From Parcubacteria group bacterium (GTDB lineage Bacteria; Patescibacteriota; Minisyncoccia; Phycocordibacterales; DATDWN01), in NCBI GenBank assembly GCA_035438705.1, contig DAORIV010000001.1, positions 43,593 to 107,592 on the forward strand: DNA of 64,000 nucleotides. Direction: 5' to 3'. The notes under the pieces were generated by a model. That model was given only the letters and a program-made list of their open reading frames with translations. It searched no databases and was not told where the DNA came from. Made by a program: the position numbers and the translations under genes. Positions 4,999 to 63,107 of the stretch are shown here, piece by piece. Position 1 is the first letter of the stretch, and each line of letters begins with the position of its first letter.

Positions 4999-7140
4999 AT
5001 GAATCGCGATTATACATTAGATAAGGTTAGAAATTTTGGGATCATTGCTCACATTGATGCAGGTAAAACTACTACATCAGAACGTGTACTTTTCTACACA
5101 GGAATGACGCACAAAATTGGTGAAGTGCATGAGGGAGAAACAGTTACTGACTGGATGGAGCAGGAGCGTGAAAGAGGAATTACGATCACGGCCGCTGCTA
5201 TTACTTGTTTCTGGAATCCAACATACATGCCTAAGGGCCAAAGACCTGAGTACCGTTTCAACATTATTGATACTCCAGGTCACATTGATTTTACAGCAGA
5301 AGTAAAGAGATCTCTTCGAGTGCTAGACGGTGCAGTGGTTGTGTTTGACGGAGTTGCTGGGGTAGAACCGCAGTCAGAAACTAACTGGAGATATGCTGAT
5401 GATGGAAATGTTCCAAGAATTTGTTTTATCAATAAACTAGATAGAACAGGAGCATCTTTTGAAAGAAGTTACGCATCTATTTTAGACAGACTTACAAAAA
5501 ATGCTGTAAGAGTTCAAATACCAATTGGACTAGAAGAAAACTTCCAGGGAGTTATTGATCTTTTGAAAATGAAAGCATTCTACTTTGAGGGTAATATGGG
5601 TATGAACATTCGTGAGGAAGAAATTCCAGCAGAATTTCTGGAGGAGGCTAAAAAATATAGAGCTGAACTTGTTGAAAAAATTGTAGAACAAGATGATGCT
5701 TTGATGTCAGCATATCTAGATGGAAAGGAGCCTTCATTTGAGGATATGAAGAAAACTTTAAGAGCAGCTACTCTTAAGGTAAAACTTATTCCTGTTTTCG
5801 CTGGCTCAGCATTGAAAAACAAAGGTGTACAACTTGTACTGGATGGTGTTGTTGATTATCTACCAAGTCCTATTGATGTTCCGCCAGTTCACGGTATTGA
5901 TCCAAAAACAAATGCAGAAATATTTAGAAACTCATCTGATACAGAACCTTTTGCTGCTCTTGCTTTCAAACTTCAAAACGATCCATTCGTAGGACAACTT
6001 ACTTTCTTCAGAGTTTATTCAGGAAGTATAGAAGCTGGTACATACATATATAATGCAACTACAGGAGAGAAAGAAAGACTAGGTCGTATTGTGCGATTGC
6101 AAGCTGACAAACGTGAAGAAGTTAAAAAAGTTTTCGCAGGAGAAATCGCTGCAGCTGTAGGACTAAAGTCTGCGAAAACTTCTCATACACTTTGTGATGA
6201 AAACAATCCTATAATTCTAGATCCAATCAAGTTCGTAGCTCCTGTGGTGTCTCTACGTATTGAACCAAAAACTAAAGCAGACCAAGAAAAAATGGGTATG
6301 GCTTTGAAGAAACTTTCTGATGAAGATCCAACTTTCGTGATCTCTTCAAACACAGATACTGGTGAATCAATTATTTCAGGAATGGGTGAGCTACACCTTG
6401 AAATCATGGTTGATCGTATGAAAAGAGAGTTTGGTGTAGAAGTAAATGTTGGTAAGCCACAAGTTGCATATAGAGAAACTATTCTTGGAGAGGCAGAGGC
6501 TGAACACAAATACATCAAGCAAACTGGAGGTAAGGGTCAATACGGTCACGTTAAACTTACAATTAAGCCAATGCAAGCTATTGAAGAGGGAGAAAAGATT
6601 CCTAAAAATGTTAAAAGATATGAAGATTTTGAATTCATCGATAACATTAAAGGAGGAGTTATCCCACAAGAATTTATTCCAGCTGTTGAAAAGGGAGTGT
6701 ATGAAGCTATGGAAAGAGGAATTGTTGCTGGTTATAAAATGGTAAATATTTCATGTGATCTGACTTTCGGTTCATACCACGATGTGGATTCATCTGAAAT
6801 CGCATACAAAATTGCAGCTTCACAAGCTTTCCAAGAAGCAGCTAAAAAGGCAAGACCAGTTATTCTCGAGCCTATCATGAAAGTTGAAGCTATAATGCCA
6901 GAGCAATTCATGGGAGACGTAACAGGTTCACTTTCAGGTAAAAGAGGACAAATAGAAGGAATGGCAGAGAGAGGAATGCTAAGAGTTATTCATGCAAAAG
7001 TTCCTCTATCTGAAATGTTTGGTTATACAACTGATATTAGATCAATGACACAAGGAAGAGGAAGTGTGCAAATGGAATTTGATCACTATGAAGTGGTACC
7101 ACCTAACGTAGAGAAGCAAATTGTTGAATCAAGAAAATAA
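4999..7140 (+). CDS. fusA: elongation factor G
   Basis: [10 protein letters not shown]-domain, full EF-G architecture; ATG at 4999 ([15 protein letters not shown]) inside the longer predicted ORF. Confidence 0.95.
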
Positions 7141-7146
7141 TTAAAA

Positions 7147-7185
7147 TAAAAATCTCACAAAAAGTGAGATTTTTATTTTTTTTAT
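7147..7185 (+). terminator. rho-independent terminator (ATCTCAC-AAAAA-GTGAGAT + T-run)
   Basis: hairpin plus T-run after fusA. Confidence 0.65.
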
Positions 7186-7218
7186 TAACATCTTATCCAG
7201 ATATTTATATCATTTTGT

Positions 7219-7247
7219 TTGATACTAAAATTCTTAAGATATATAAT
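7219..7247 (+). promoter_or_regulatory. promoter TTGATA-17-TATAAT ending 7 nt before the ATG at 7255 (leaderless arrangement)
   Basis: consensus-like hexamers, 17-bp spacer. Confidence 0.5.
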
Positions 7248-7254
7248 ATGTGTT

Positions 7255-10200
7255 ATGAGTCTCTCTACTTCTGAAGATTATACTCCACATAGTGGTAATG
7301 AAAGAGTGATTGATCTAGATCATCTAGATGATTTGCCATTAAATGTAAAACAAGATGATAAAGATGTTTTGGGTGATTTTGATATCTTACATAAACAACT
7401 AGACCCTGAAGAAAGAAAATCCGCAGTCGTACATGATTTTTCTGCATATAAAAAACCAACAGAAATAATTGAAGGACCAGTTTCAGAATCTATTGACGGT
7501 TTAGATATCGAAGATTTGAGAACTAAAATTAATTCTAATTTAGAAGATAATAATTTTGATGCTGCATACAATATAATTCAAAAAATTGACAGTGAAAGTG
7601 TTTTACATGCTGTTTTAAGTGAAGCTATCACTTTTCTCATAAGAAAAAAAGAATTTTCAGTTGCAAAGAAATTTGTGCGACTTATTCATAACATGGACGT
7701 GTACACGACTGAACTTAATTACATATTGGAGAAAGAGAGGAATACTGACCCACTTTCAGATTTTAAATCTCAAAATGACGAGGTGGTGGTAAATAAAATT
7801 GAAATTAAAAAACCAAAAAAAGAAGTTGAACCGGTTTTTGCAAATACTGAGAAGGGAAGCATTTCGGATATTAATGAACGCACAATTGACGAGACTAACG
7901 AGGAACTTATCTCTGATGAAGATTATGATAATTTTGTTAAAAAAGGTGATGTCTCAGGCGATATACTGGTAAACATAGCTGACAGAATGGCAAGAGGAGA
8001 AAAAACAACTGAAAGAGAGCTGGCTATTTACCAAACCTTTGGCCCAAAAATTGAATTACTTTTGAGGAATAGAAAAGGTGATAAAGAAGCTGTGGTTGAA
8101 GGGGAAACTGTGGAAACAGAAGACTCACATGAGGTTGTTCCTTCAGTACCAGAAGTAAGTAGTAGTATTGAAAACACCGAAAAACTAGAAAAAGATCTTG
8201 AGGATTCTAGAAAAGAATTTGTTGCACAAGAAGCTGTTTGGAGGGCAAAAAACCAACAAAGTAAAAGTTGGTTTAGAAAAAATGTTCTAGGGAATTTAGG
8301 TATGGACAAACAAACTCCTTTAATCCCAGAACAATCAGAGCTTGAAGAAGCCAGAATTGTGTATAATCTCGCAAAGAAAAATAAACTTAGAGAAACTATA
8401 GGTATGGGGGACATCACTGTCTTATTAGAAGAAACAGAAAGAGAAAGAAAGACTCTCGAATCTTTAAAGTCTAGTTATTCACCAAAAGTTATTAAAGAGT
8501 CCCAACTTAATAGAGATATAAGAACTGGTTTTTTGGGACTTAATTCAAAAGAAGAAGATGGGGTTGTGTACGAAGTGGAAAAGGGAGTGTTTGCAGAAAA
8601 GTTTGAATCTATGTCCCAAAAAGCCATGGATAAATGGTCTAAACTTCCTAAGCCAGTTCAGATAGCTACAAGTACAGCACTTGTTACTGGAACAAGCTTT
8701 ACATTTGGTTTAGCTGCAGCAGCAGGCCCTTTGGGTTATGCAGGATATAGAGTTGCAAAAAGTGCACTATTTGGAGGAGTAGTAGCTCAACCACTTGGAA
8801 AATTTGTTGACAATATACACAATAGAAAAAATAAAGCTTCAGAAGAAGAAAGTCTGGAAGAATTTTCAGAGGGGATAAATATAGATAATTTTGAAGAAAA
8901 AGAAGCAGAAAGAATGGCTCGAGATGAAAAGATGGTGGATGAAAAGAAAAAGCAGAGATTTGTAAAGGCAATGACAAAAGTTGCTGCGGGAGGAATAGTA
9001 TCTGCTGGAATGGAAATGAGCGGTGCATCTAGTTTACTTTTTGATAAGGGAGACATAGACCTTCCTGGAAAAGGCACACTAAATGTTCCAAATGATTTCG
9101 GAGATGTAGATAAAAATTTAGATAAATTAGAAAAATTCAGACTAAATGCAAAAGAAGTTTTACCTACAGATGATAAATTAGATAACCTTCAGGAGTTTAA
9201 GCCTGCAGTTTCAAGTAATTTGGATACAACACAAGTAGTAAATGAAGCACCTTCAGACCTAATTATCCAGGATATTCATAATCTAAAGGCACAGATAATG
9301 TCACAGTATGGGGGAGAGGTACCAGATAGTCTAAAGCCAATCATGGAAAAAACTCCAAAAGAATTAATAAAAATATTTGATTTCAATAATCCAGGTAATA
9401 CTGATTTTAAACCTGGTGTAGATACTGAGGATTTAACTATAGATAGTAATGGAAATGTTTATTATGTACACCAAGATGGAAGCAGGCAAACTCTTTTTGA
9501 TTCACAAAAAGGAAAATTTTACCGATTTGATGGCACTGAAGCTGAAAAAACTATTTCTAGTATAGGAACTGATGGTTCAGAGATTTATCCAAATGGTCAG
9601 ATAGGAGATAAAGTTTATTCCAAACTAGATTTTGGAGGAAATAAGATTTTGACACCAGATCCTGTTGTTCAGACTGTTGGAACAGAAGTGCTGGAGGGTG
9701 ATCCAATTTTCAAAACTGAAGCTGTCTCTGTTTTGGATGTGAAAGATACCACCGAAGAAGAAGTAGCAAATAACACAGTTTCTCACACAGAACTTTCACA
9801 GGGTAAATCTGTAGATGTATTCAGAATGGGAGAAGATAAAATTGTTTCATATGATGGGGCAAGAATTGGTCAGGAGGTATTACAAAATGGTAAAAAAACT
9901 CTAGTTCTTGATGATACTTACCAAGACGGTGAACAGTATAGAAGTACAAGAGAAGCTTTTTCAAAAGCATTTGAGGCAAATGCAACAGTGGAAAACGTTG
10001 GTACGAATCCAATAGCAGAATCTTTTGAAGGTGGTAAAATATATATTACATACAACATTCCAAACGATCCTAATTCAGTTAGAGTTTATTTAAATGGTAA
10101 AGAGATAGCAGTTGGAGATACTACAGTCGTTGATAGTAAGGGAATTCCAAAGATAAAAATGCATGGCAATTTAAAAGGGGGTTGGTTTCTTGTCGACAAT

Positions 10201-10758: not shown

Positions 10759-11955
10759 ATGGCAGATTTTGATAGATCAAAACCTCACATAAACGTGGGA
10801 ACAATTGGTCACGTTGACCATGGAAAGACAACATTAACAGCAGCTATCCTAAACACATTGGGTAGACAAGGAGCAGGCTACAGCGCAAAAGTTGTAGGTA
10901 TCGATGGTATCGATAAAGCTCCTGAAGAAAAAGCAAGAGGAATCACTATTGCTCTTTCTCACAACGAGTATGAGACACCTACAAGACACTATGCTCACGT
11001 AGATGCTCCAGGACACGCCGACTACATCAAGAACATGATTACTGGTGCCGCTCAAATGGATGGTGCCATCCTAGTGGTTGCTGCAACTGATGGAGTTATG
11101 CCACAAACAAGAGAACACGTTCTTTTGGCAAAACAAGTTGGAGTACCAAAACTTATCGTATTCCTAAACAAATGCGACATGGTACCTGATAAGGAGCTTA
11201 TTGATCTAGTTGAAGAGGAAGTTCGAGAGTTGCTTACAAAACAAGGTTTCGACGGAGCAGGAGCTCCAGTTATCAGAGGTTCAGGACTAAAAGCTCTTGA
11301 GTCAGCTAATAATGATGATGAATGGGCAAAGAAGGTTCTAGAGCTTGCAAACGCACTAGATACATACTTCCCAGTTCCAGAAAGAGATCTTGATAAACCA
11401 TTCCTAATGCCAGTTGAAGACATCTTCTCAATTGAAGGAAGAGGAACAGTGGTAACAGGAAGAATTGAAAGAGGAATTGTTAAGGTTGGAGAGGAAATTG
11501 AATGTGTTGGTCTACACGAGACACAAAAATACACAGTTACTGGTATTGAAATGTTCAATAAATCTCTACAACAAGGACAAGCTGGAGATAACGCAGGTAT
11601 CCTACTTAGAGGTGCTTCAAAGGATGGTGTTCACAGAGGACAAGTTCTTGCTAAGCCAAAATCTGTAACTCCTCACACAGAATTTACAGCTGAGGTGTAC
11701 ATCCTAAAGAAAGAGGAAGGAGGAAGACACACTCCATTCTTCTCTGGATACAAACCACAATTCTACATCAGAACAACAGACGTTACAGGAGATGTGACTC
11801 TAAATGAAGGAGTAGAAATGGTTATGCCAGGAGACCAAGTAACTTTCAAAGTTAAACTTGTTGCCCCAGTAGCTCTAGAAGACAACACTAAGTTTGCTAT
11901 TAGAGAGGGAGGTAAGACTGTGGGAGCGGGAGTTGTAACTAAAATTATAGCCTAA
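10759..11955 (+). CDS. tuf: elongation factor Tu
   Basis: [22 protein letters not shown] motifs; 398 aa. Confidence 0.97.
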
Positions 11956-38805: not shown

Positions 38806-38834
38806 AAAAAAACCGCCACATAGCGGTTTTTTTA
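38806..38834. terminator. bidirectional terminator AAACCGCCACATAGCGGTTT with A/T runs
   Basis: between the giant gene (+) and the malic enzyme gene (-). Confidence 0.55.
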
Positions 38835-39989
38835 TTTGCTAACCTTTTTTACTGCATTTGCTACAGCTTTAGCAACTCTTTTATCAAATGGACTTGGAAT
38901 AATGTAACTAGGGGATAGCTCCTTGTAAGTGACTAGTTTAGCTATAGCTAAAGCTGATGCTAACTTCATTTCGGTGGTTATTTGTTTTGCACCACTATCT
39001 AATGCGCCCCGGAAAATCCCAGGAAATACTAAAACATTATTTATTTGGTTTGGGTAATCACTTCTGCCTGTTCCAAAAACTTTTATTTTGGTTTTCTTTG
39101 CATTCTCCATACTTATCTCTGGATTAGGATTTGCCAAAGCAAGAACTATTGGGTCTTTGGCCATTTTTTCTATCCATTCAGGTTTTAAAATATCTGCAAC
39201 TGAAACACCAATAAAAACATCAGCATCTTCCAGCACTTGTTCCAGGTTTCCTTCCATTGTCTTACTATTTGTTTTATCAGCAATAGCTTTTTTGTATTTG
39301 TTTAAGTCAGTTCTTTTTCTATGTAAGGCACTTTTACTATCTAACATGATAATATTCTTTGCATTCACGCCATAATCAATAAGTAGATTACATATTGCTA
39401 TTGCTGCAGAACCAGCACCGTTAATTATAGTTTTAATACTGTTCTTATCTTTTTTAACGACTTTTAATGCGTTTATTAATGAAGCAAGAACCACAATTGC
39501 TGTGCCATGCTGATCGTCGTGCATTACAGGTATGTTCAATTCTTTTTTTAGTCGTTCTTCTATCTCAAAACATTTTGGCGCTGAAATATCCTCTAAATTT
39601 ATTCCACCAAATCCAACTGAGATTATTTTGATTGTTCTAATAATTTCTTCTGTATCTTGTGTGTCTAAACAAATAGGGTAGGCATCTATTCCAGCAAACT
39701 CTTTAAATAATATTGCCTTACCTTCCATAACAGGCAGAGCACCGTAAGGTCCAATATTTCCAAGTCCCAGAACTGATGACCCATCGGATATTACAGCCAC
39801 AGAGTTTGATTTAACTGTGAGTTTATTAGCTAAATCTTTATTTTTTTTTAAAACTCTTGATACTTCTGCTATCCCTGGTGTGTATGCAACAGATAGCTCG
39901 TATTTATTAGTTACTTTTAATTTAGAATAAGTACCAATTTTACCTTTAATTTTTTTATGCAATTCAAGTGATTTTTTAAAATAATTCAT
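38832..39989 (-). CDS. NAD(P)-dependent malic enzyme (short bacterial form)
   Basis: YTPGIAEV, ISDGSSVLGLGNIGPYGALPVMEGK malic-enzyme motifs; start at MNYFKK (ATG 39987-39989); upstream in-frame extension to 40055 runs into repeat/hairpin sequence. Confidence 0.8.
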   Translation of the reverse strand: MNYFKKSLELHKKIKGKIGTYSKLKVTNKYELSVAYTPGIAEVSRVLKKNKDLANKLTVKSNSVAVISDGSSVLGLGNIGPYGALPVMEGKAILFKEFAGIDAYPICLDTQDTEEIIRTIKIISVGFGGINLEDISAPKCFEIEERLKKELNIPVMHDDQHGTAIVVLASLINALKVVKKDKNSIKTIINGAGSAAIAICNLLIDYGVNAKNIIMLDSKSALHRKRTDLNKYKKAIADKTNSKTMEGNLEQVLEDADVFIGVSVADILKPEWIEKMAKDPIVLALANPNPEISMENAKKTKIKVFGTGRSDYPNQINNVLVFPGIFRGALDSGAKQITTEMKLASALAIAKLVTYKELSPSYIIPSPFDKRVAKAVANAVKKVSK

Positions 39990-39992
39990 ACT

Positions 39993-40003
39993 GTGTTGGC
40001 GGG
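39993..40003. repeat. 11-bp direct repeat TGTGTTGGCGG (copy of the tRNA-Ser 3-prime end/flank; second copy 43133..43143)
   Basis: region reads GGCCCGCCAACACA on the minus strand, versus GGCTCCGCCAACACA at the intact tRNA-Ser 3-prime end. Confidence 0.6.
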
Positions 40004-40074
40004 CCACTCGGGTTAAGTACCGTCCGAGTGAGACGTTGTAAGGATATTTTAACACATTTATTGACGGTCAATTG

Positions 40075-43090: not shown

Positions 43091-43137
43091 GTTAGTTAAA
43101 ACTAAAGCACTCGGGTCACACCGATACTAAATTGTGT

Positions 43138-43230
43138 TGGCGGAGCCGGATGGATTCGAACCATCGGTACCTTATTAAAGGGTACACCTCTTTAGCAAAG
43201 AGGCACGTTAGACCACTCTGACACGGCTCC
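43138..43230 (-). tRNA. tRNA-Ser (anticodon GCU), class II with long variable arm, CCA encoded
   Basis: GGAGCCG acceptor, anticodon loop TTGCTAA, T-arm GATGGTTCGAATCCATC, 3-prime CGGCTCCGCCA. Confidence 0.85.
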
Positions 43231-43257
43231 AATAAAATAACATTCAACATGCTTTCT

Positions 43258-43386
43258 TTTTAGCAAAGAGGCACGTTAGGTCAGGAATAGTTTTTTTTAA
43301 AAACTTTCCCGACCCGGACTCGCGTCTAGACGCTCCGTCTCTAAATTACTATCCCATAGTAATTTAGCACTCTGACACGGCTCCAA
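43258..43386 (-). repeat. partial duplicate of the tRNA-Ser 5-prime half (positions ~1-38) interrupted in the D-loop by an ~80-bp insert made of two perfect palindromes
   Basis: GGAGCCGTGTCAGAGTG...[CTAAATTACTAT-GGG-ATAGTAATTTAG ; GCGTCTAGACGC]...CTAACGTGCCTCTTTGCTAAA matches the intact tRNA, then diverges. Confidence 0.7.
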
Positions 43387-43444
43387 TTAATTTCAAGGTT
43401 AGCATATTTTATGTATTAGGTATATTATAGCGCACGGAGGACTT

Positions 43445-43894
43445 ATGCCAGATAGACACGGTTACACCGTTGAAGAATTTGCTCTTTTACTTTCTGTTGG
43501 TGAGTGTACTGTCTACAGATGGATTTACGAGGACACTATCCTGTACTTTAATTCTCGCATACCAAAGAAATATGCAAATAAAATAATAAAGCTTTGGTCA
43601 AAAACATGTACACCTTCTGAATTTTCAAGGCACCTTGGAGTCAGTCCTTCCAAGGTAGACATACTGATTAAAAAAGGAAAACTTCGAACTATTCGAGTGG
43701 TCAGAAAACCTCGGGTTTTTCTAAGAGATCTGGAGAAAATCAAAAATGATAAAAATCTGGTACAAAAGACAGATGTAATTAACAAAAATAAAATAGGTTT
43801 TGCTAGATATTCAAAAAAAAGAAAAACAGCAATTGCTCTATTGGGCTGTTATTCTCCAAATAGAAAAAAGCGGGGTAAAAGAGATATATTTTAA
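43445..43894 (+). CDS. small DNA-binding protein with two HTH (excisionase/MerR-like HTH_17) motifs
   Basis: YTVEEFALLLSVGECTVYRWI and SEFSRHLGVSPSKVDILIKKGKL helix-turn-helix signatures. Confidence 0.5.
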   Translation: MPDRHGYTVEEFALLLSVGECTVYRWIYEDTILYFNSRIPKKYANKIIKLWSKTCTPSEFSRHLGVSPSKVDILIKKGKLRTIRVVRKPRVFLRDLEKIKNDKNLVQKTDVINKNKIGFARYSKKRKTAIALLGCYSPNRKKRGKRDIF

Positions 43895-43896
43895 TT

Positions 43897-43929
43897 AAGG
43901 CGCCCGTCATTACTACGGGCGCCTGTTCT
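43897..43929 (+). terminator. terminator GGCGCCCGT-CATTACT-ACGGGCGCC + T-rich tail
   Basis: 9-bp GC-rich stem after the HTH gene. Confidence 0.55.
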
Positions 43930-43968
43930 ATTACATTTTTTAAAAAAATTCTGTATACTGGAAAAATT

Positions 43969-44055
43969 GGATAGGTGGATGAGTGGTTTAAATCAACGGT
44001 TTACTAAACCGTCGTAGGGTAAAACCTACCGAGAGTTCGAATCTCTCCCTATCCG
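43969..44055 (+). tRNA. class II tRNA (Ser-like, long variable arm) with anticodon loop UUACUAA, apparent anticodon ACU
   Basis: acceptor GGATAGG/CCTATCC, D-stem GAT/ATC, anticodon stem ACGGT/ACCGT, variable arm GTAGG..CCTAC, T-arm GAGAGTTCGAATCTCTC, discriminator G. Confidence 0.6.
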
Positions 44056-44058
44056 CAT

Positions 44059-44703
44059 TTAATGTGCAATTGTAAAGCCAATTACATCTTTTGCCCCCTT
44101 ACCAATCAGTATTTTTCTAGCTTCAGTTAGTGTGGTGCCAGTTGTAACAACATCATCAATCAGGAATATATATTTACCAAAAACCCTCTCATCAGCATCA
44201 AAACAATCAGATAAGTTTTTTACTCGTTCTTCTTTTGAGTTGCTATGACTTTGTTTTGGAGTCTCTTTCACTTTGCCAAGCCATTGTGGTGCATAAATAA
44301 GTAGTCTCTGGGTATCACAATCTATTATTGATTTGGCAATTAATTCACTTTGGTTATATCCACGTTGGACTCTTGATTCTGTGGTTATGGGAATCGGTAT
44401 TAACAAAAATTCAGCATTATTGTTGAATAATGATATATCAGAAATTACAGAAATAATTTCTTCGAATATAATTTTTCCAATAGTTTCTAATGGTGAGACA
44501 TTTTCTTTGTATTTCAATTCCCAAATTATTGCTTTTACTCTAGTGTCTTTATATTGAAATAAGGGGGTTATCCATTCTATATCGGTTACTTTTTGAGATT
44601 TGGGTAATGAATATATAGTTTTTTCGTCGAGCTTCTTCACTATTTCATAATTAGATCTTGGTGGAATGATAAAATCCAAGATACTTTTTCCGATCTCAAT
44701 CAT
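44059..44703 (-). CDS. comFC: ComF-family phosphoribosyltransferase-domain protein
   Basis: C-terminal PRTase motif FLIDDVVTTGTT; likely start at MIEIGKS. Confidence 0.7.
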   Translation of the reverse strand: MIEIGKSILDFIIPPRSNYEIVKKLDEKTIYSLPKSQKVTDIEWITPLFQYKDTRVKAIIWELKYKENVSPLETIGKIIFEEIISVISDISLFNNNAEFLLIPIPITTESRVQRGYNQSELIAKSIIDCDTQRLLIYAPQWLGKVKETPKQSHSNSKEERVKNLSDCFDADERVFGKYIFLIDDVVTTGTTLTEARKILIGKGAKDVIGFTIAH

Positions 44704-44779
44704 TCTATTTACAACAGTATTTACCATTATGGTATTTATTATACACCTAATATTGTGATACAATATTTTAAATATATTT

Positions 44780-45907
44780 ATGGCAAATTTCCTATCTCAA
44801 ATAACAGATTTATTTGCAAAGAAAAGTGGAAGTGTCTTAGGCATCGACATAGGTTCATCTTCTATAAAAGTAGTGCAAATAAGTAGAAAAAATGGTCATG
44901 CTATTTTAGAAACATACGGGGAACTTGCTCTCGGACCTTACACTGGGAAGGGGGTTGGGGAGTCTGTAGCTCTACCTCAAGAAAAAGTAATTGAAGCAGT
45001 TAAGGATATGCTTAAAGAAAAAGAGGTAAATATTACGACTATGTCTTGTGGAGTTGCCATACCTTTTGCATCAAGTTTGATGGCGGTAATTGAAATGCCA
45101 GATGTATCGAGGAAAGAATTGGAGCAAATGATTCCTATTGAAGCTAGAAAGTATGTTCCGGTGCCAATATCTGAGGTTACATTAGATTGGTATGTGATAC
45201 CAAAAGATAAAAATGCTGAACCTCTTGTTCCTGCGGACCCAAATGCTCCTAAACCAAAATCAACCATTGAAGTATTAATTGTTGCATTGCACAACGACAC
45301 TATAAATAAATACAAAAATATTGTAACAAATACTGGTTTAGATGTTGGATTTTTTGAGATTGAAATATTCAGTACTATGCGTTCTGTTTTGGATGATGAA
45401 ACTAAACCGGTTTTAGTTGTTGATATGGGAGCATCTAGCACAAAGTTATATATGGTTGAAAGGGGGATACTTAGAGCATCACATATGGTTGAAAGAGGTT
45501 CATATGACATAACAGATGAGTTGTCAAAATCACTTGGTATTTCTCTTACTGATGCAGAATATTTGAAAAGAGAAAAGGGTTTGATAGGAGAAACAAATGG
45601 AATTGCTTTAAAAAATGTTGCTTCCTTTACATTAAACTATATTTTTACAGAAGCAGATCGCTTTATACTTACTTATCAAAAAAAATACAATAAGGATGTC
45701 AGTAAGGTGATTCTTGTGGGGGGTGGTAGTGCATTAAAAGGTGTGGTTCCGTTTGCAAAAGAAATACTTGAAACAGAAGTTTTGGCAGGAGATCCTTTTT
45801 CAAAAGTGGTAGCACCTGCATTTCTAGAACAAGTTCTTAAAGAGACAGGTCCTGAGTTCGCTGTGGCAGTTGGAGTGGCTCTTCGAAAGTTGCAAGAAGT
45901 ACGTTAG
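44780..45907 (+). CDS. pilM: type IV pilus assembly protein PilM (actin-like ATPase fold)
   Basis: GIDIGSSSIKVVQ N-terminus, 375 aa, first gene of pilMNO set. Confidence 0.8.
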   Translation: MANFLSQITDLFAKKSGSVLGIDIGSSSIKVVQISRKNGHAILETYGELALGPYTGKGVGESVALPQEKVIEAVKDMLKEKEVNITTMSCGVAIPFASSLMAVIEMPDVSRKELEQMIPIEARKYVPVPISEVTLDWYVIPKDKNAEPLVPADPNAPKPKSTIEVLIVALHNDTINKYKNIVTNTGLDVGFFEIEIFSTMRSVLDDETKPVLVVDMGASSTKLYMVERGILRASHMVERGSYDITDELSKSLGISLTDAEYLKREKGLIGETNGIALKNVASFTLNYIFTEADRFILTYQKKYNKDVSKVILVGGGSALKGVVPFAKEILETEVLAGDPFSKVVAPAFLEQVLKETGPEFAVAVGVALRKLQEVR

Positions 45908-62723: not shown

Positions 62724-62728
62724 TTTTG

Positions 62729-62802
62729 TGTCGGCGGGAGGACTCGAACCTCCGACCTTGGGCTTATGAGTCCCACGCTCTAACCACCTGAGCTACGCCG
62801 AC
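62729..62802 (-). tRNA. tRNA-Met (anticodon CAU; elongator-like, could be tRNA-Ile2/lysidine)
   Basis: GTCGGCG acceptor, D-arm TAGCTCAGGTGGTTAGAGC, anticodon loop CTCATAA, T-arm GGAGGTTCGAGTCCTCC, discriminator A, no CCA. Confidence 0.8.
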
Positions 62803-63036
62803 AATATAGGAAATATAACAGAAAATAAGGAAAAACGGAATATAAAACATACCAGGGACTTTTTCTAGATTCTTATTCGTCGACACTCATAAGAATCTAG
62901 AACGCAGATTTGCGACAATCCGTACTCGGATTGTAAACCGCAAATCTGTGCAAGTTCTGACGTAAACTACCCCAGGTAGTTTACTGTCCTCGAACAAGTA
63001 AGCAAAAACTCCTAAAAAGGAGTTTTTGCTTACTTG

Positions 63037-63107
63037 TTGCGGGACCAGGACTTGCACCTGGGTCTGCAGGTTATGAGCCTACCGAGATACTGCTTCTCTA
63101 TCCCGCT
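63037..63107 (-). tRNA. second CAU-anticodon tRNA (initiator-like 1:72 mismatch, atypical T-loop TGCAAGT); Met/fMet/Ile2 undetermined
   Basis: AGCGGGA/TCCCGCA acceptor with A1-A72, D-arm GAGA-AGCAGTA-TCTC, anticodon stem-loop GTAGG-CTCATAA-CCTGC. Confidence 0.55.

Follow-up and report, generated by a model that had tools for sequence, protein, structure and literature searches.

The DNA analysed here is a stretch of 64,000 nucleotides from a Parcubacteria group bacterium (GenBank assembly GCA_035438705.1, contig DAORIV010000001.1), referred to as the window, and the subject of this work is a gene that it carries for a class II transfer RNA (tRNA) with the anticodon ACU, tRNA-Ser(ACU), in which the wobble position is occupied by adenosine (A34). 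Comparison across many genomes shows natural tRNA-Ser(ACU) to be a genuine tRNA that has long been under purifying and structural selection. Judging from the sequences, it is probably a functional, vertically inherited serine isoacceptor, which would read AGU by Watson-Crick pairing beside the conventional tRNA-Ser(GCU) and whose A34 is most likely not deaminated.

The avoidance of wobble adenosine in bacteria is a long-standing question. The seven tRNAs with A-starting (ANN) anticodons in split codon boxes have been called "universally absent" (bioRxiv 10.64898/2026.05.15.725136) or, where present, sporadic and not retained, and absent from phages (bioRxiv 10.64898/2026.05.15.725136, PMC11066159, tRNADB-CE counts); tRNADB-CE counts three A-starting Ser tRNAs in all bacteria. 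These papers bear out the remark in the preliminary description, made from the letters of the window, that a serine tRNA with A34 is unusual for bacteria. The ANN surveys drew on genome sets of mostly cultured bacteria. tRNA-Ser(ACU) is a natural counter-example to the absence of split-box A34 tRNAs, found in a large uncultured radiation and in phage arrays.

Structure of the tRNA-Ser(ACU) gene

The gene and its anticodon are located as follows:
43969-44055, plus strand: tRNA-Ser(ACU), class II, 7/3/5/5 cloverleaf with a 5-bp variable-arm stem and discriminator G
44003-44005, plus strand: anticodon A34-C35-U36, in the loop UUACUAA (44001-44007), register from ARAGORN and Rfam

The sequence of window positions 43969-44055(+) is GGATAGGTGGATGAGTGGTTTAAATCAACGGTTTACTAAACCGTCGTAGGGTAAAACCTACCGAGAGTTCGAATCTCTCCCTATCCG. 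ARAGORN calls a tRNA-Ser with the anticodon ACT at 43969-44056(+), and the Rfam model RF00005 matches 43969-44055(+) over its full length (model positions 1-71) with 56.4 bits (E-value = 1.7e-9; gathering score 29) and the loop register UUACUAA. The acceptor stem is GGAUAGG/CCUAUCC (7 bp), the D-stem GAU/AUC (3 bp), the anticodon stem ACGGU/ACCGU (5 bp, 43996-44000 with 44008-44012) and the T-arm GAGAG-UUCGAAU-CUCUC; CCA is not encoded. The minimum free energy fold recovers the anticodon, variable and T arms with a z-score of -3.66, and none of 200 shuffled sequences folds as well. The cloverleaf of the preliminary description (7-bp acceptor, 3-bp D-stem, 5-bp anticodon stem, long variable arm, canonical T-arm) is thus correct, and the placement of ACU within UUACUAA holds in both programs. 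The worry that the fold might be off by one can be set aside, as the register is agreed by ARAGORN, Rfam and the covariation in 108 homologues described below, and neither program assigns a standard anticodon in another loop register. According to Rfam and covariation, the geometry of the acceptor and T stems is canonical (7 bp and 5 bp), which rules out an allo-tRNA of the 8/4 or 9/3 Ser-identity type.

A discriminator G73, an acceptor start of G1-C72, G2-C71 and A3-U70, and a long variable arm are the classic bacterial (E. coli) serine identity features. The acceptor of tRNA-Ser(ACU) begins with exactly these three pairs, accompanied by G73. In addition, A37 is consistent with a tRNA decoding an A-starting codon. 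ACU pairs with AGU and the body is of the serine type, so the initial proposal of a serine-type tRNA that would read AGU fits the sequence.

Two candidate transcription signals lie upstream:
43930-43959, plus strand: promoter-like site ATTACA-18 nt-TATACT, ending 9 nt 5' of the tRNA; 9/12 matches in a consensus scan, a consensus match alone
43898-43924, plus strand: intrinsic-terminator-like hairpin with a 10-bp stem (8 G-C pairs) and a T-rich tail, closing the upstream gene for a 149-aa protein

The terminator-like hairpin at 43898-43924 is predicted to insulate tRNA-Ser(ACU) as a separate transcription unit.

Distribution and conserved gene neighbourhood

To collect homologs, we searched one genome per species, 185,579 species in all, with a pattern composed of a Ser-type D-loop, the anticodon loop YTACTAA, class II spacing and the T-loop GTTCRAATC. 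Within the window, tRNA-Ser(ACU) is the sole match to this pattern, and none is expected by chance. Ser-type ACU tRNAs were found in at least 119 species-representative genomes. ARAGORN calls tRNA-Ser(ACT) in 118 of the 119 census loci listed, the remaining one being truncated at the end of its contig. Judged by record titles, about 100 of the census loci listed are of the Patescibacteria type; the labels in the census are Paceibacteria/Paceibacterota, Nomurabacteria, Magasanikbacteria, Parcubacteria, Minisyncoccia and unlabelled bacteria, and a large subset consists of co-assembly metagenome-assembled genomes (MAGs) labelled "uncultured Candidatus Saccharibacteria". About 10 of the loci listed lie outside Patescibacteria, in Planctomycetota, Verrucomicrobiota, Bacteroidota, one Actinomycetota and one record labelled archaeon. 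Ser-type ACU tRNAs also occur in GC-rich MAGs (loci L013, L014, L029, L106, L123 and L128; 51-60% G+C), the GC-rich carriers being labelled Verrucomicrobiota, Planctomycetota and Chitinophaga, and the anticodon stem-loop of their ACU tRNAs does not differ from that of the Patescibacteria family.

The comparison of neighbourhoods relies on four features of the window:
43138-43230, minus strand: tRNA-Ser(GCU), the conventional AGY reader, CCA encoded, divergent to tRNA-Ser(ACU) (ARAGORN; Rfam 46.3 bits)
44059-44727, minus strand: ComF-like phosphoribosyltransferase (Pfam Pribosyltran), stop codon 3 nt from the tRNA 3' end; synteny anchor
44780-45907, plus strand: PilM, first gene of the type IV pilus operon (Pfam); synteny anchor
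38832-40055, minus strand: malic enzyme (Pfam); synteny anchor

The best matches of the window PilM, ComF and malic enzyme are in MAGs labelled Patescibacteria, Paceibacteria or Nomurabacteria. The GCU copy, which had been noted about 0.8 kb away, is separated from tRNA-Ser(ACU) by a gap of 738 nt. A tRNA-Ser(GCU) is present within the 8-kb slice in 69 of 118 census loci listed, at a median gap of ~100 nt. The two genes are oriented as follows in the census loci listed:
divergent, as in the window: 38 loci
tandem, GCU then ACU: 25 loci
tandem, ACU then GCU: 5 loci
convergent: 1 locus

In census loci, PilM homologues lie within 8 kb of the ACU tRNA, and in many of these loci ComF homologues are found near it. 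Taken together, ComF/PilM and/or malic enzyme accompany the ACU tRNA in 34 census loci listed, with PilM identity ranging from 73% down to ~25%. Malic-enzyme homologues (52-84% identity) adjoin the tRNA pair in loci L032, L038, L044, L079, L116 and L209, and in L209 the gene order (ComF, tRNA-GCU, tRNA-ACU, malic enzyme) is that of the window. This neighbourhood, shared across species, indicates that the gene is chromosomal and vertically inherited.

A separate, covarying lineage of serine tRNAs

Relationships between the two tRNAs were assessed by sequence identities computed with the anticodon masked. Mean values for the census loci listed are:
ACU against ACU: 77.5%
GCU against GCU: 77.9%
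ACU against GCU of the same locus: 61.6%
ACU against GCU of different loci: 60.8%

For all 119 ACU tRNAs listed, the nearest neighbour is another ACU tRNA, which points to an old isoacceptor lineage and not to recurrent G34A mutation of the adjacent gene. An alignment of 108 distinct ACU sequences shows that 99.1% of the cloverleaf cells are paired, with double-sided compensatory changes in 20 of 25 pairs. The covariation score is 0.556, compared with a mean of 0.167 for shuffled alignments, of which 0/500 reach the observed value, and with at most 0.106 when partners are slid by 1-3 columns. The variable-arm helix is 96.6% paired over the family, all five of its pairs covary and the variable arm is long in every member. 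Of the serine identity positions, G1 and A3 do not vary among the 108 sequences, and conservation of G2 and G73 is at least 90%; the canonical D-loop GG and T-loop UUCGAAU are invariant in the family.

Selection is visible on a shorter time scale as well. The same PilM protein is found on at least 23 contigs from several samples, and wherever such a contig covers the position, its two tRNAs match the window copies exactly. In the contig L001 (GCA_964399045.1) both tRNAs are 100% identical to those of the window, while the DNA between them is 87.9% identical, a contrast that argues for purifying selection, anticodon included.

These data bear on the suggestion that tRNA-Ser(ACU) is a recently mutated or decaying G34A copy of tRNA-Ser(GCU), a pseudogene without a function of its own. 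The GCU gene lies 0.74 kb away, a single transition would suffice, and GCU variants do occur on a similar backbone. Nevertheless, the window ACU and GCU tRNAs differ in every stem and share only ~61% identity, the ACU gene stays identical across strains whose flanks are 12% different, it has a promoter-like site of its own, and the family extends over at least 119 species with extensive compensatory covariation. Strain identity, lineage comparison and covariation refute a recent paralogue of this kind, and we give the pseudogene explanation practically no weight.

ACU tRNAs on the family backbone and in viral arrays

A second pattern, comprising the D-arm and the anticodon stem alone and leaving the anticodon as NNN, matched 78 of the 108 tRNAs of the ACU family and none of the 82 other Ser tRNAs in the collected loci. 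Its matches divide by anticodon as follows:
metagenome contigs: ACT 107, GCT 13, other 0 (among 120 matches listed)
viral contigs: ACT 12, GCT 7, other 0 (19 loci)

Among the metagenome matches listed, 103 of the 107 ACT loci have fewer than 5 tRNAs and 63 of the 107 include a separate GCU-family tRNA. Backbone-GCT matches never have a second AGY tRNA nearby, and 6 of 13 of them in metagenomes (among the matches listed) and 6 of 7 in viral contigs belong to arrays of at least 5 tRNAs. G34 and A34 therefore interchange on the family backbone; for the wider family A34 is a preference and not a requirement. This preference is strong at chromosomal loci, which usually also have the partner GCU gene.

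Each of the 12 viral ACT loci is an array of 13-27 tRNAs, on IMG/VR contigs that reach 238 kb (within our loci L254-L272, e.g. L254, the 238-kb contig, L263, L265 and L269). These contigs have 32-42% G+C, 10 of the 12 falling at 32-35%. Most of the arrays include Ser-UGA and Arg-UCU, and 10 of 12 include Arg-ACG. Ser-GCU was found in none of the 12, the ACU tRNA being the only AGY reader of the array. Because viral Ser(ACU) stands alongside the TadA-dependent Arg(ACG), the host presumably has TadA, and the ACU tRNA thus appears to coexist with a TadA-dependent tRNA in these arrays. The viral ACU tRNAs have a short variable arm and 85-87% identity to the nearest family members; they differ from the window tRNA, which is chromosomal and paired with GCU, also in the lack of a GCU partner. 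Among named GenBank phages a single one, Xanthomonas phage XaC1, matched a viral ACU tRNA (79%), and no host could be assigned. Metagenome loci L135, L214, L219 and L252 group with the viral contigs as tRNA arrays carrying Ser(ACU). Two phage-like arrays, L178 and L256, contain CUA-anticodon tRNAs, labelled 'Pyl' by ARAGORN, which are candidate amber suppressors.

The existence of related ACU tRNAs in large viral arrays raises the possibility that the gene is cargo of a mobile element or prophage, a recent horizontal arrival and not a core gene. Two local features point the same way: the gene between the two tRNAs is excisionase-like with a double helix-turn-helix (HTH), and the cassette formed by these three genes lies in inverted orientation in strain L001, whereas in L002 a restriction-modification/SMODS island takes its place. 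Against this, the tRNA pair keeps its ComF/PilM/malic-enzyme neighbourhood in 34 divergent species listed, with PilM diverged to ~25-50% identity, and a homologue of the HTH gene was found in none of those 34 loci. No integrase was seen among the genes examined around tRNA-Ser(ACU), and the viral versions are set apart by their short variable arm. A blastn search of window positions 43100-44060 against GenBank phages, made with a phage or plasmid origin of the cassette in mind, returned generic tRNA-Ser similarity alone (72-80%). Mobile cargo is thus a very unlikely explanation.

Codon use, decoding and the state of A34

The window has ~35% G+C. Codons were counted over its 58 long open reading frames (ORFs), 17,857 codons in total:
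AGU: 319 codons
AGC: 55 codons
AGA: 551 codons
AGG: 81 codons
CGN: 131 codons

AGU makes up 86% of the AGY codons (319:55), the strongest U-skew of the seven two-fold NNY boxes (0.56-0.83 in the others). AGA accounts for 551 of 763 arginine codons overall and for 202 of 240 (84%) in genes of the translation apparatus. When the EF-Tu of the window (10759-11955) is aligned to a solved EF-Tu, AGA is found at 14 of the 15 columns with arginine in both, from which it follows that AGA means arginine and that the AGN box has the standard split. The same mapping rules out a reassignment of AGA to serine. The idea of a suppressor-like tRNA does not hold up either: ACU is cognate to AGU (serine), the body is of the serine type, AGA is arginine here and there is no sign of AGN reassignment, which rules out a suppressor or recoding tRNA.

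We propose that seryl-tRNA synthetase would charge tRNA-Ser(ACU) with serine, that A34 would be kept as adenosine, or at least not be converted to inosine, and that AGU would be read specifically through an A:U Watson-Crick pair. The GCU tRNA would cover AGC and provide back-up reading of AGU, and AGA and AGG would stay arginine. The expected benefit is efficient decoding of AGU, the prevailing AGY codon of this AT-rich genome, without reliance on G:U wobble. A role limited to AGU is suggested by the retention of the GCU partner in most loci. Experiments with engineered tRNAs in E. coli are in line with such a role. An orthogonal ACU-anticodon tRNA yielded 9.4% at AGU, values below detection at AGC and AGA, and 0.36% at AGG (PMC11066159), and over-expressed Ser-tRNA(ACU) had neutral to beneficial effects on growth parameters (bioRxiv 10.64898/2026.05.15.725136).

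Alternatively, A34 may be deaminated to inosine by TadA or a relative, in which case the tRNA would read AGU and AGC and, weakly, AGA; it would then be the first tRNA with inosine at position 34 (I34) in a split codon box. Its loop, U32-U33-A34-C35-U36-A37-A38, shares U33-A34-C35 and A37-A38 with the TadA substrate tRNA-Arg(ACG), and positions 32 and 36 are the only ones at which it departs from the TadA-type Arg2 loop (C32-U33-A34-C35-G36-A37-A38), which is therefore not matched. Yet E. coli TadA left an ACU-anticodon tRNA unmodified, with no inosine, even though the rest of its loop was that of tRNA-Arg2, and TadA no longer acted on the tested tRNAs with Leu-AAG and His-AUG anticodons once position 32, 37 or 38 was changed (PMC11066159); in the tRNA studied here position 32 is U and not C. 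In addition, I:A pairing would place serine at arginine sites, AGA being the dominant arginine codon, which makes inosine at this position improbable. The GCU tRNA, moreover, is kept in most loci and would be largely redundant if an ICU anticodon read AGC well. A tblastn search with E. coli TadA as the query, run over 1.9 Mb of locus DNA from ~250 genomes (too little to infer absence), gave one ambiguous match, an ORF for a CDA-fold deaminase directly beside the GCU/ACU tRNA pair of L209 (5929-6498, minus strand). It scores 73.5 bits against the TadA equivalog, below the cutoff of 150, and guanine deaminases match it about equally. No homologue of it was found next to the ACU tRNA in the other collected loci by a deaminase-motif scan and tblastn. 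On balance, we regard deamination as unlikely. The broader proposition that A34 is enzymatically altered in Patescibacteria, either to inosine by a TadA relative of widened specificity or by a new A34 modification, would imply a novel wobble rule for a split AGN box and, possibly, a tolerated or regulated Ser/Arg ambiguity at AGA; it, too, seems improbable to us.

A further candidate is a role mainly other than ribosomal decoding, such as that of a Ser-tRNA donor in cell-wall or lipid aminoacylation, the odd anticodon serving to avoid the ribosome. Non-proteinogenic tRNA isoacceptors are known in Staphylococcus, and genes for a Mur-ligase-like protein and a hydrolase are found 1.6-3.7 kb from tRNA-Ser(ACU). 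However, the Mur-ligase-like gene shows no conserved association with the tRNA across the census loci, and the genes nearby included no Fem/MprF-type transferase. The invariance of the canonical D-loop GG and T-loop, together with an anticodon perfectly cognate for the abundant AGU, also speaks for decoding. A role of this kind appears extremely unlikely.

Several observations weigh against the interpretation of tRNA-Ser(ACU) as a dedicated AGU reader with unmodified A34. ACT and several conserved loop bases were preset in the census pattern, and the anticodon-free scan places GCU on the family backbone in 13 of the 120 metagenome matches listed and 7 of the 19 viral ones. In the GC-rich carriers the AGU share of AGY is only ~0.35-0.41, which weakens codon bias as a full explanation for retention of the gene. 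The one split-box ANN tRNA sequenced in a 2026 preprint, the engineered Phe-AAA, was reported there to be partly I34 in E. coli (bioRxiv 10.64898/2026.05.15.725136). To these may be added the ambiguous TadA match of L209, where a TadA-like deaminase ORF adjoins the tRNA pair.

Two arginine tRNAs merit mention in connection with TadA. tRNA-Arg(GCG), rare in bacteria, is present in three chromosomal Patescibacteria loci (L043, 542-614; L072, 5649-5721; and one further census locus). The census loci yielded no Arg(ACG), and the eight Arg(ACG) genes of the metagenome loci all lie within phage-like arrays. This hints that in some ACU carriers CGY is read by a G34 tRNA and TadA may be missing.

Relation to known tRNAs

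A close counterpart of tRNA-Ser(ACU) is bacterial tRNA-Ser(GCU), with which it shares the class II body, G73, the GGA acceptor start, the UU-NCU-AA loop, A37 and the codon box. Apart from the ~61% identity, the difference resides in the wobble base: G34 reads AGC and AGU, whereas A34 is expected to read AGU alone. The natural tRNAs nearest to it in kind are those of four-fold boxes in which gene-encoded A34 is retained over evolution in AT-rich, reduced genomes, of Mycoplasma, as tRNA-Thr(AGU) with unmodified A34, and of Lactobacillales, as Leu-AAG (PMC11066159, bioRxiv 10.64898/2026.05.15.725136). In four-fold boxes misreading does no harm, and these A34 tRNAs tend to take the place of the GNN tRNA; Leu-AAG carries I34. 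Ser(ACU) resembles the Mycoplasma Thr-AGU type in that its gene-encoded A34 is conserved over a clade, but its box is not four-fold: it is split with arginine, and the tRNA coexists with its GNN partner. With tRNA-Arg(ACG)/TadA, the one universal bacterial A34 tRNA, it has the loop bases U33-A34-C35 and A37-A38 in common; it differs in having U for G at position 36 and U for C at position 32, and inosine would here misread AGA. Engineered Ser-tRNA(ACU) in E. coli has the same anticodon and was translationally active, AGU-specific, not deaminated and non-toxic or beneficial (Schmitt et al. 2024, PMC11066159; bioRxiv 10.64898/2026.05.15.725136). Those were laboratory constructs with an anticodon thought absent from nature, whereas the window tRNA is natural and clade-conserved.

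A survey of tRNAs in 95 complete Patescibacteria genomes (mSystems 2026, PMC13011429) does not mention tRNA-Ser(ACU); its Table S2 gives tRNAs by amino acid only, with 4-5 Ser genes in Paceibacteria. In the literature on Ser-ACU, ANN anticodons and tRNA repertoires of the Candidate Phyla Radiation, we found no published description of a natural conserved bacterial tRNA-Ser(ACU). Automatic MAG annotations probably list "tRNA-Ser(ACT)" already, and the gene calls themselves may thus not be new; what appears to be new is that the gene is recognised as a functional split-box A34 isoacceptor conserved in a clade. Annotators should not dismiss tRNA-Ser(ACT) calls in Patescibacteria as errors or pseudogenes. 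The family also offers a natural system for asking whether unmodified A34 is truly deleterious, how AGU stays distinct from AGA/AGG, and whether loss or narrow specificity of TadA permits A34 tRNAs.

Local gene content, strain variation and other tRNAs

The window contains a ribosomal-protein/EF-Tu cluster, a type IV pilus operon, ComF, malic enzyme and small genes. One of the latter separates the two serine tRNAs:
43445-43894, plus strand: 149-aa protein with two excisionase-type HTH_17 domains (Pfam HTH_17, E-value = 3.6e-10, two stretches; PHROG excisionase families)

No homologue of this protein was found in the census loci by tblastn; it is local context and has no part in the function of the tRNA. 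The cassette composed of the GCU tRNA, the double-HTH gene and the ACU tRNA (43138-44056) is a structural polymorphism between near-identical strains. In L001 (8514-9276) it is inverted relative to ComF, with breakpoints at the tRNA 3' ends; the 3' ends of the GCU and ACU tRNAs form a 30-nt inverted repeat, 77% complementary, at these breakpoints. In L002 (~6900-7400) the cassette is absent, and a type I restriction-modification and SMODS island borders ComF, the junction falling exactly where the 3' end of the tRNA would be.

The 58 window ORFs end in TAA (45), TAG (12) and TGA (1). TGA is not a sense codon in the window, the ORFs being unbroken at TGA. Just past the right end of the window there is one release factor gene with PCRF/RF-1 domains (L130, 11459-12394), and RF2 may have been lost; FtsEX and similar genes are also found there, and no Arg tRNAs.

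Two further tRNA observations concern other isoacceptors. At 63036-63107 on the minus strand of the window there is a tRNA-Met(CAU) with A1, a non-standard 1-72 pair flagged by Rfam and a 71-nt body, beside a second, canonical tRNA-Met(CAU) at 62728-62802; the former may be of the initiator or Ile2 type. tRNA-Ile(UAU) is frequent, with seven genes in the census loci and nine in the metagenome loci (e.g. L016, 7689-7764; L037, 1780-1854; L050, 6449-6522; L054, 508-581), which suggests that in these Patescibacteria AUA may be decoded without lysidine/TilS, as in Mycoplasma mobile.

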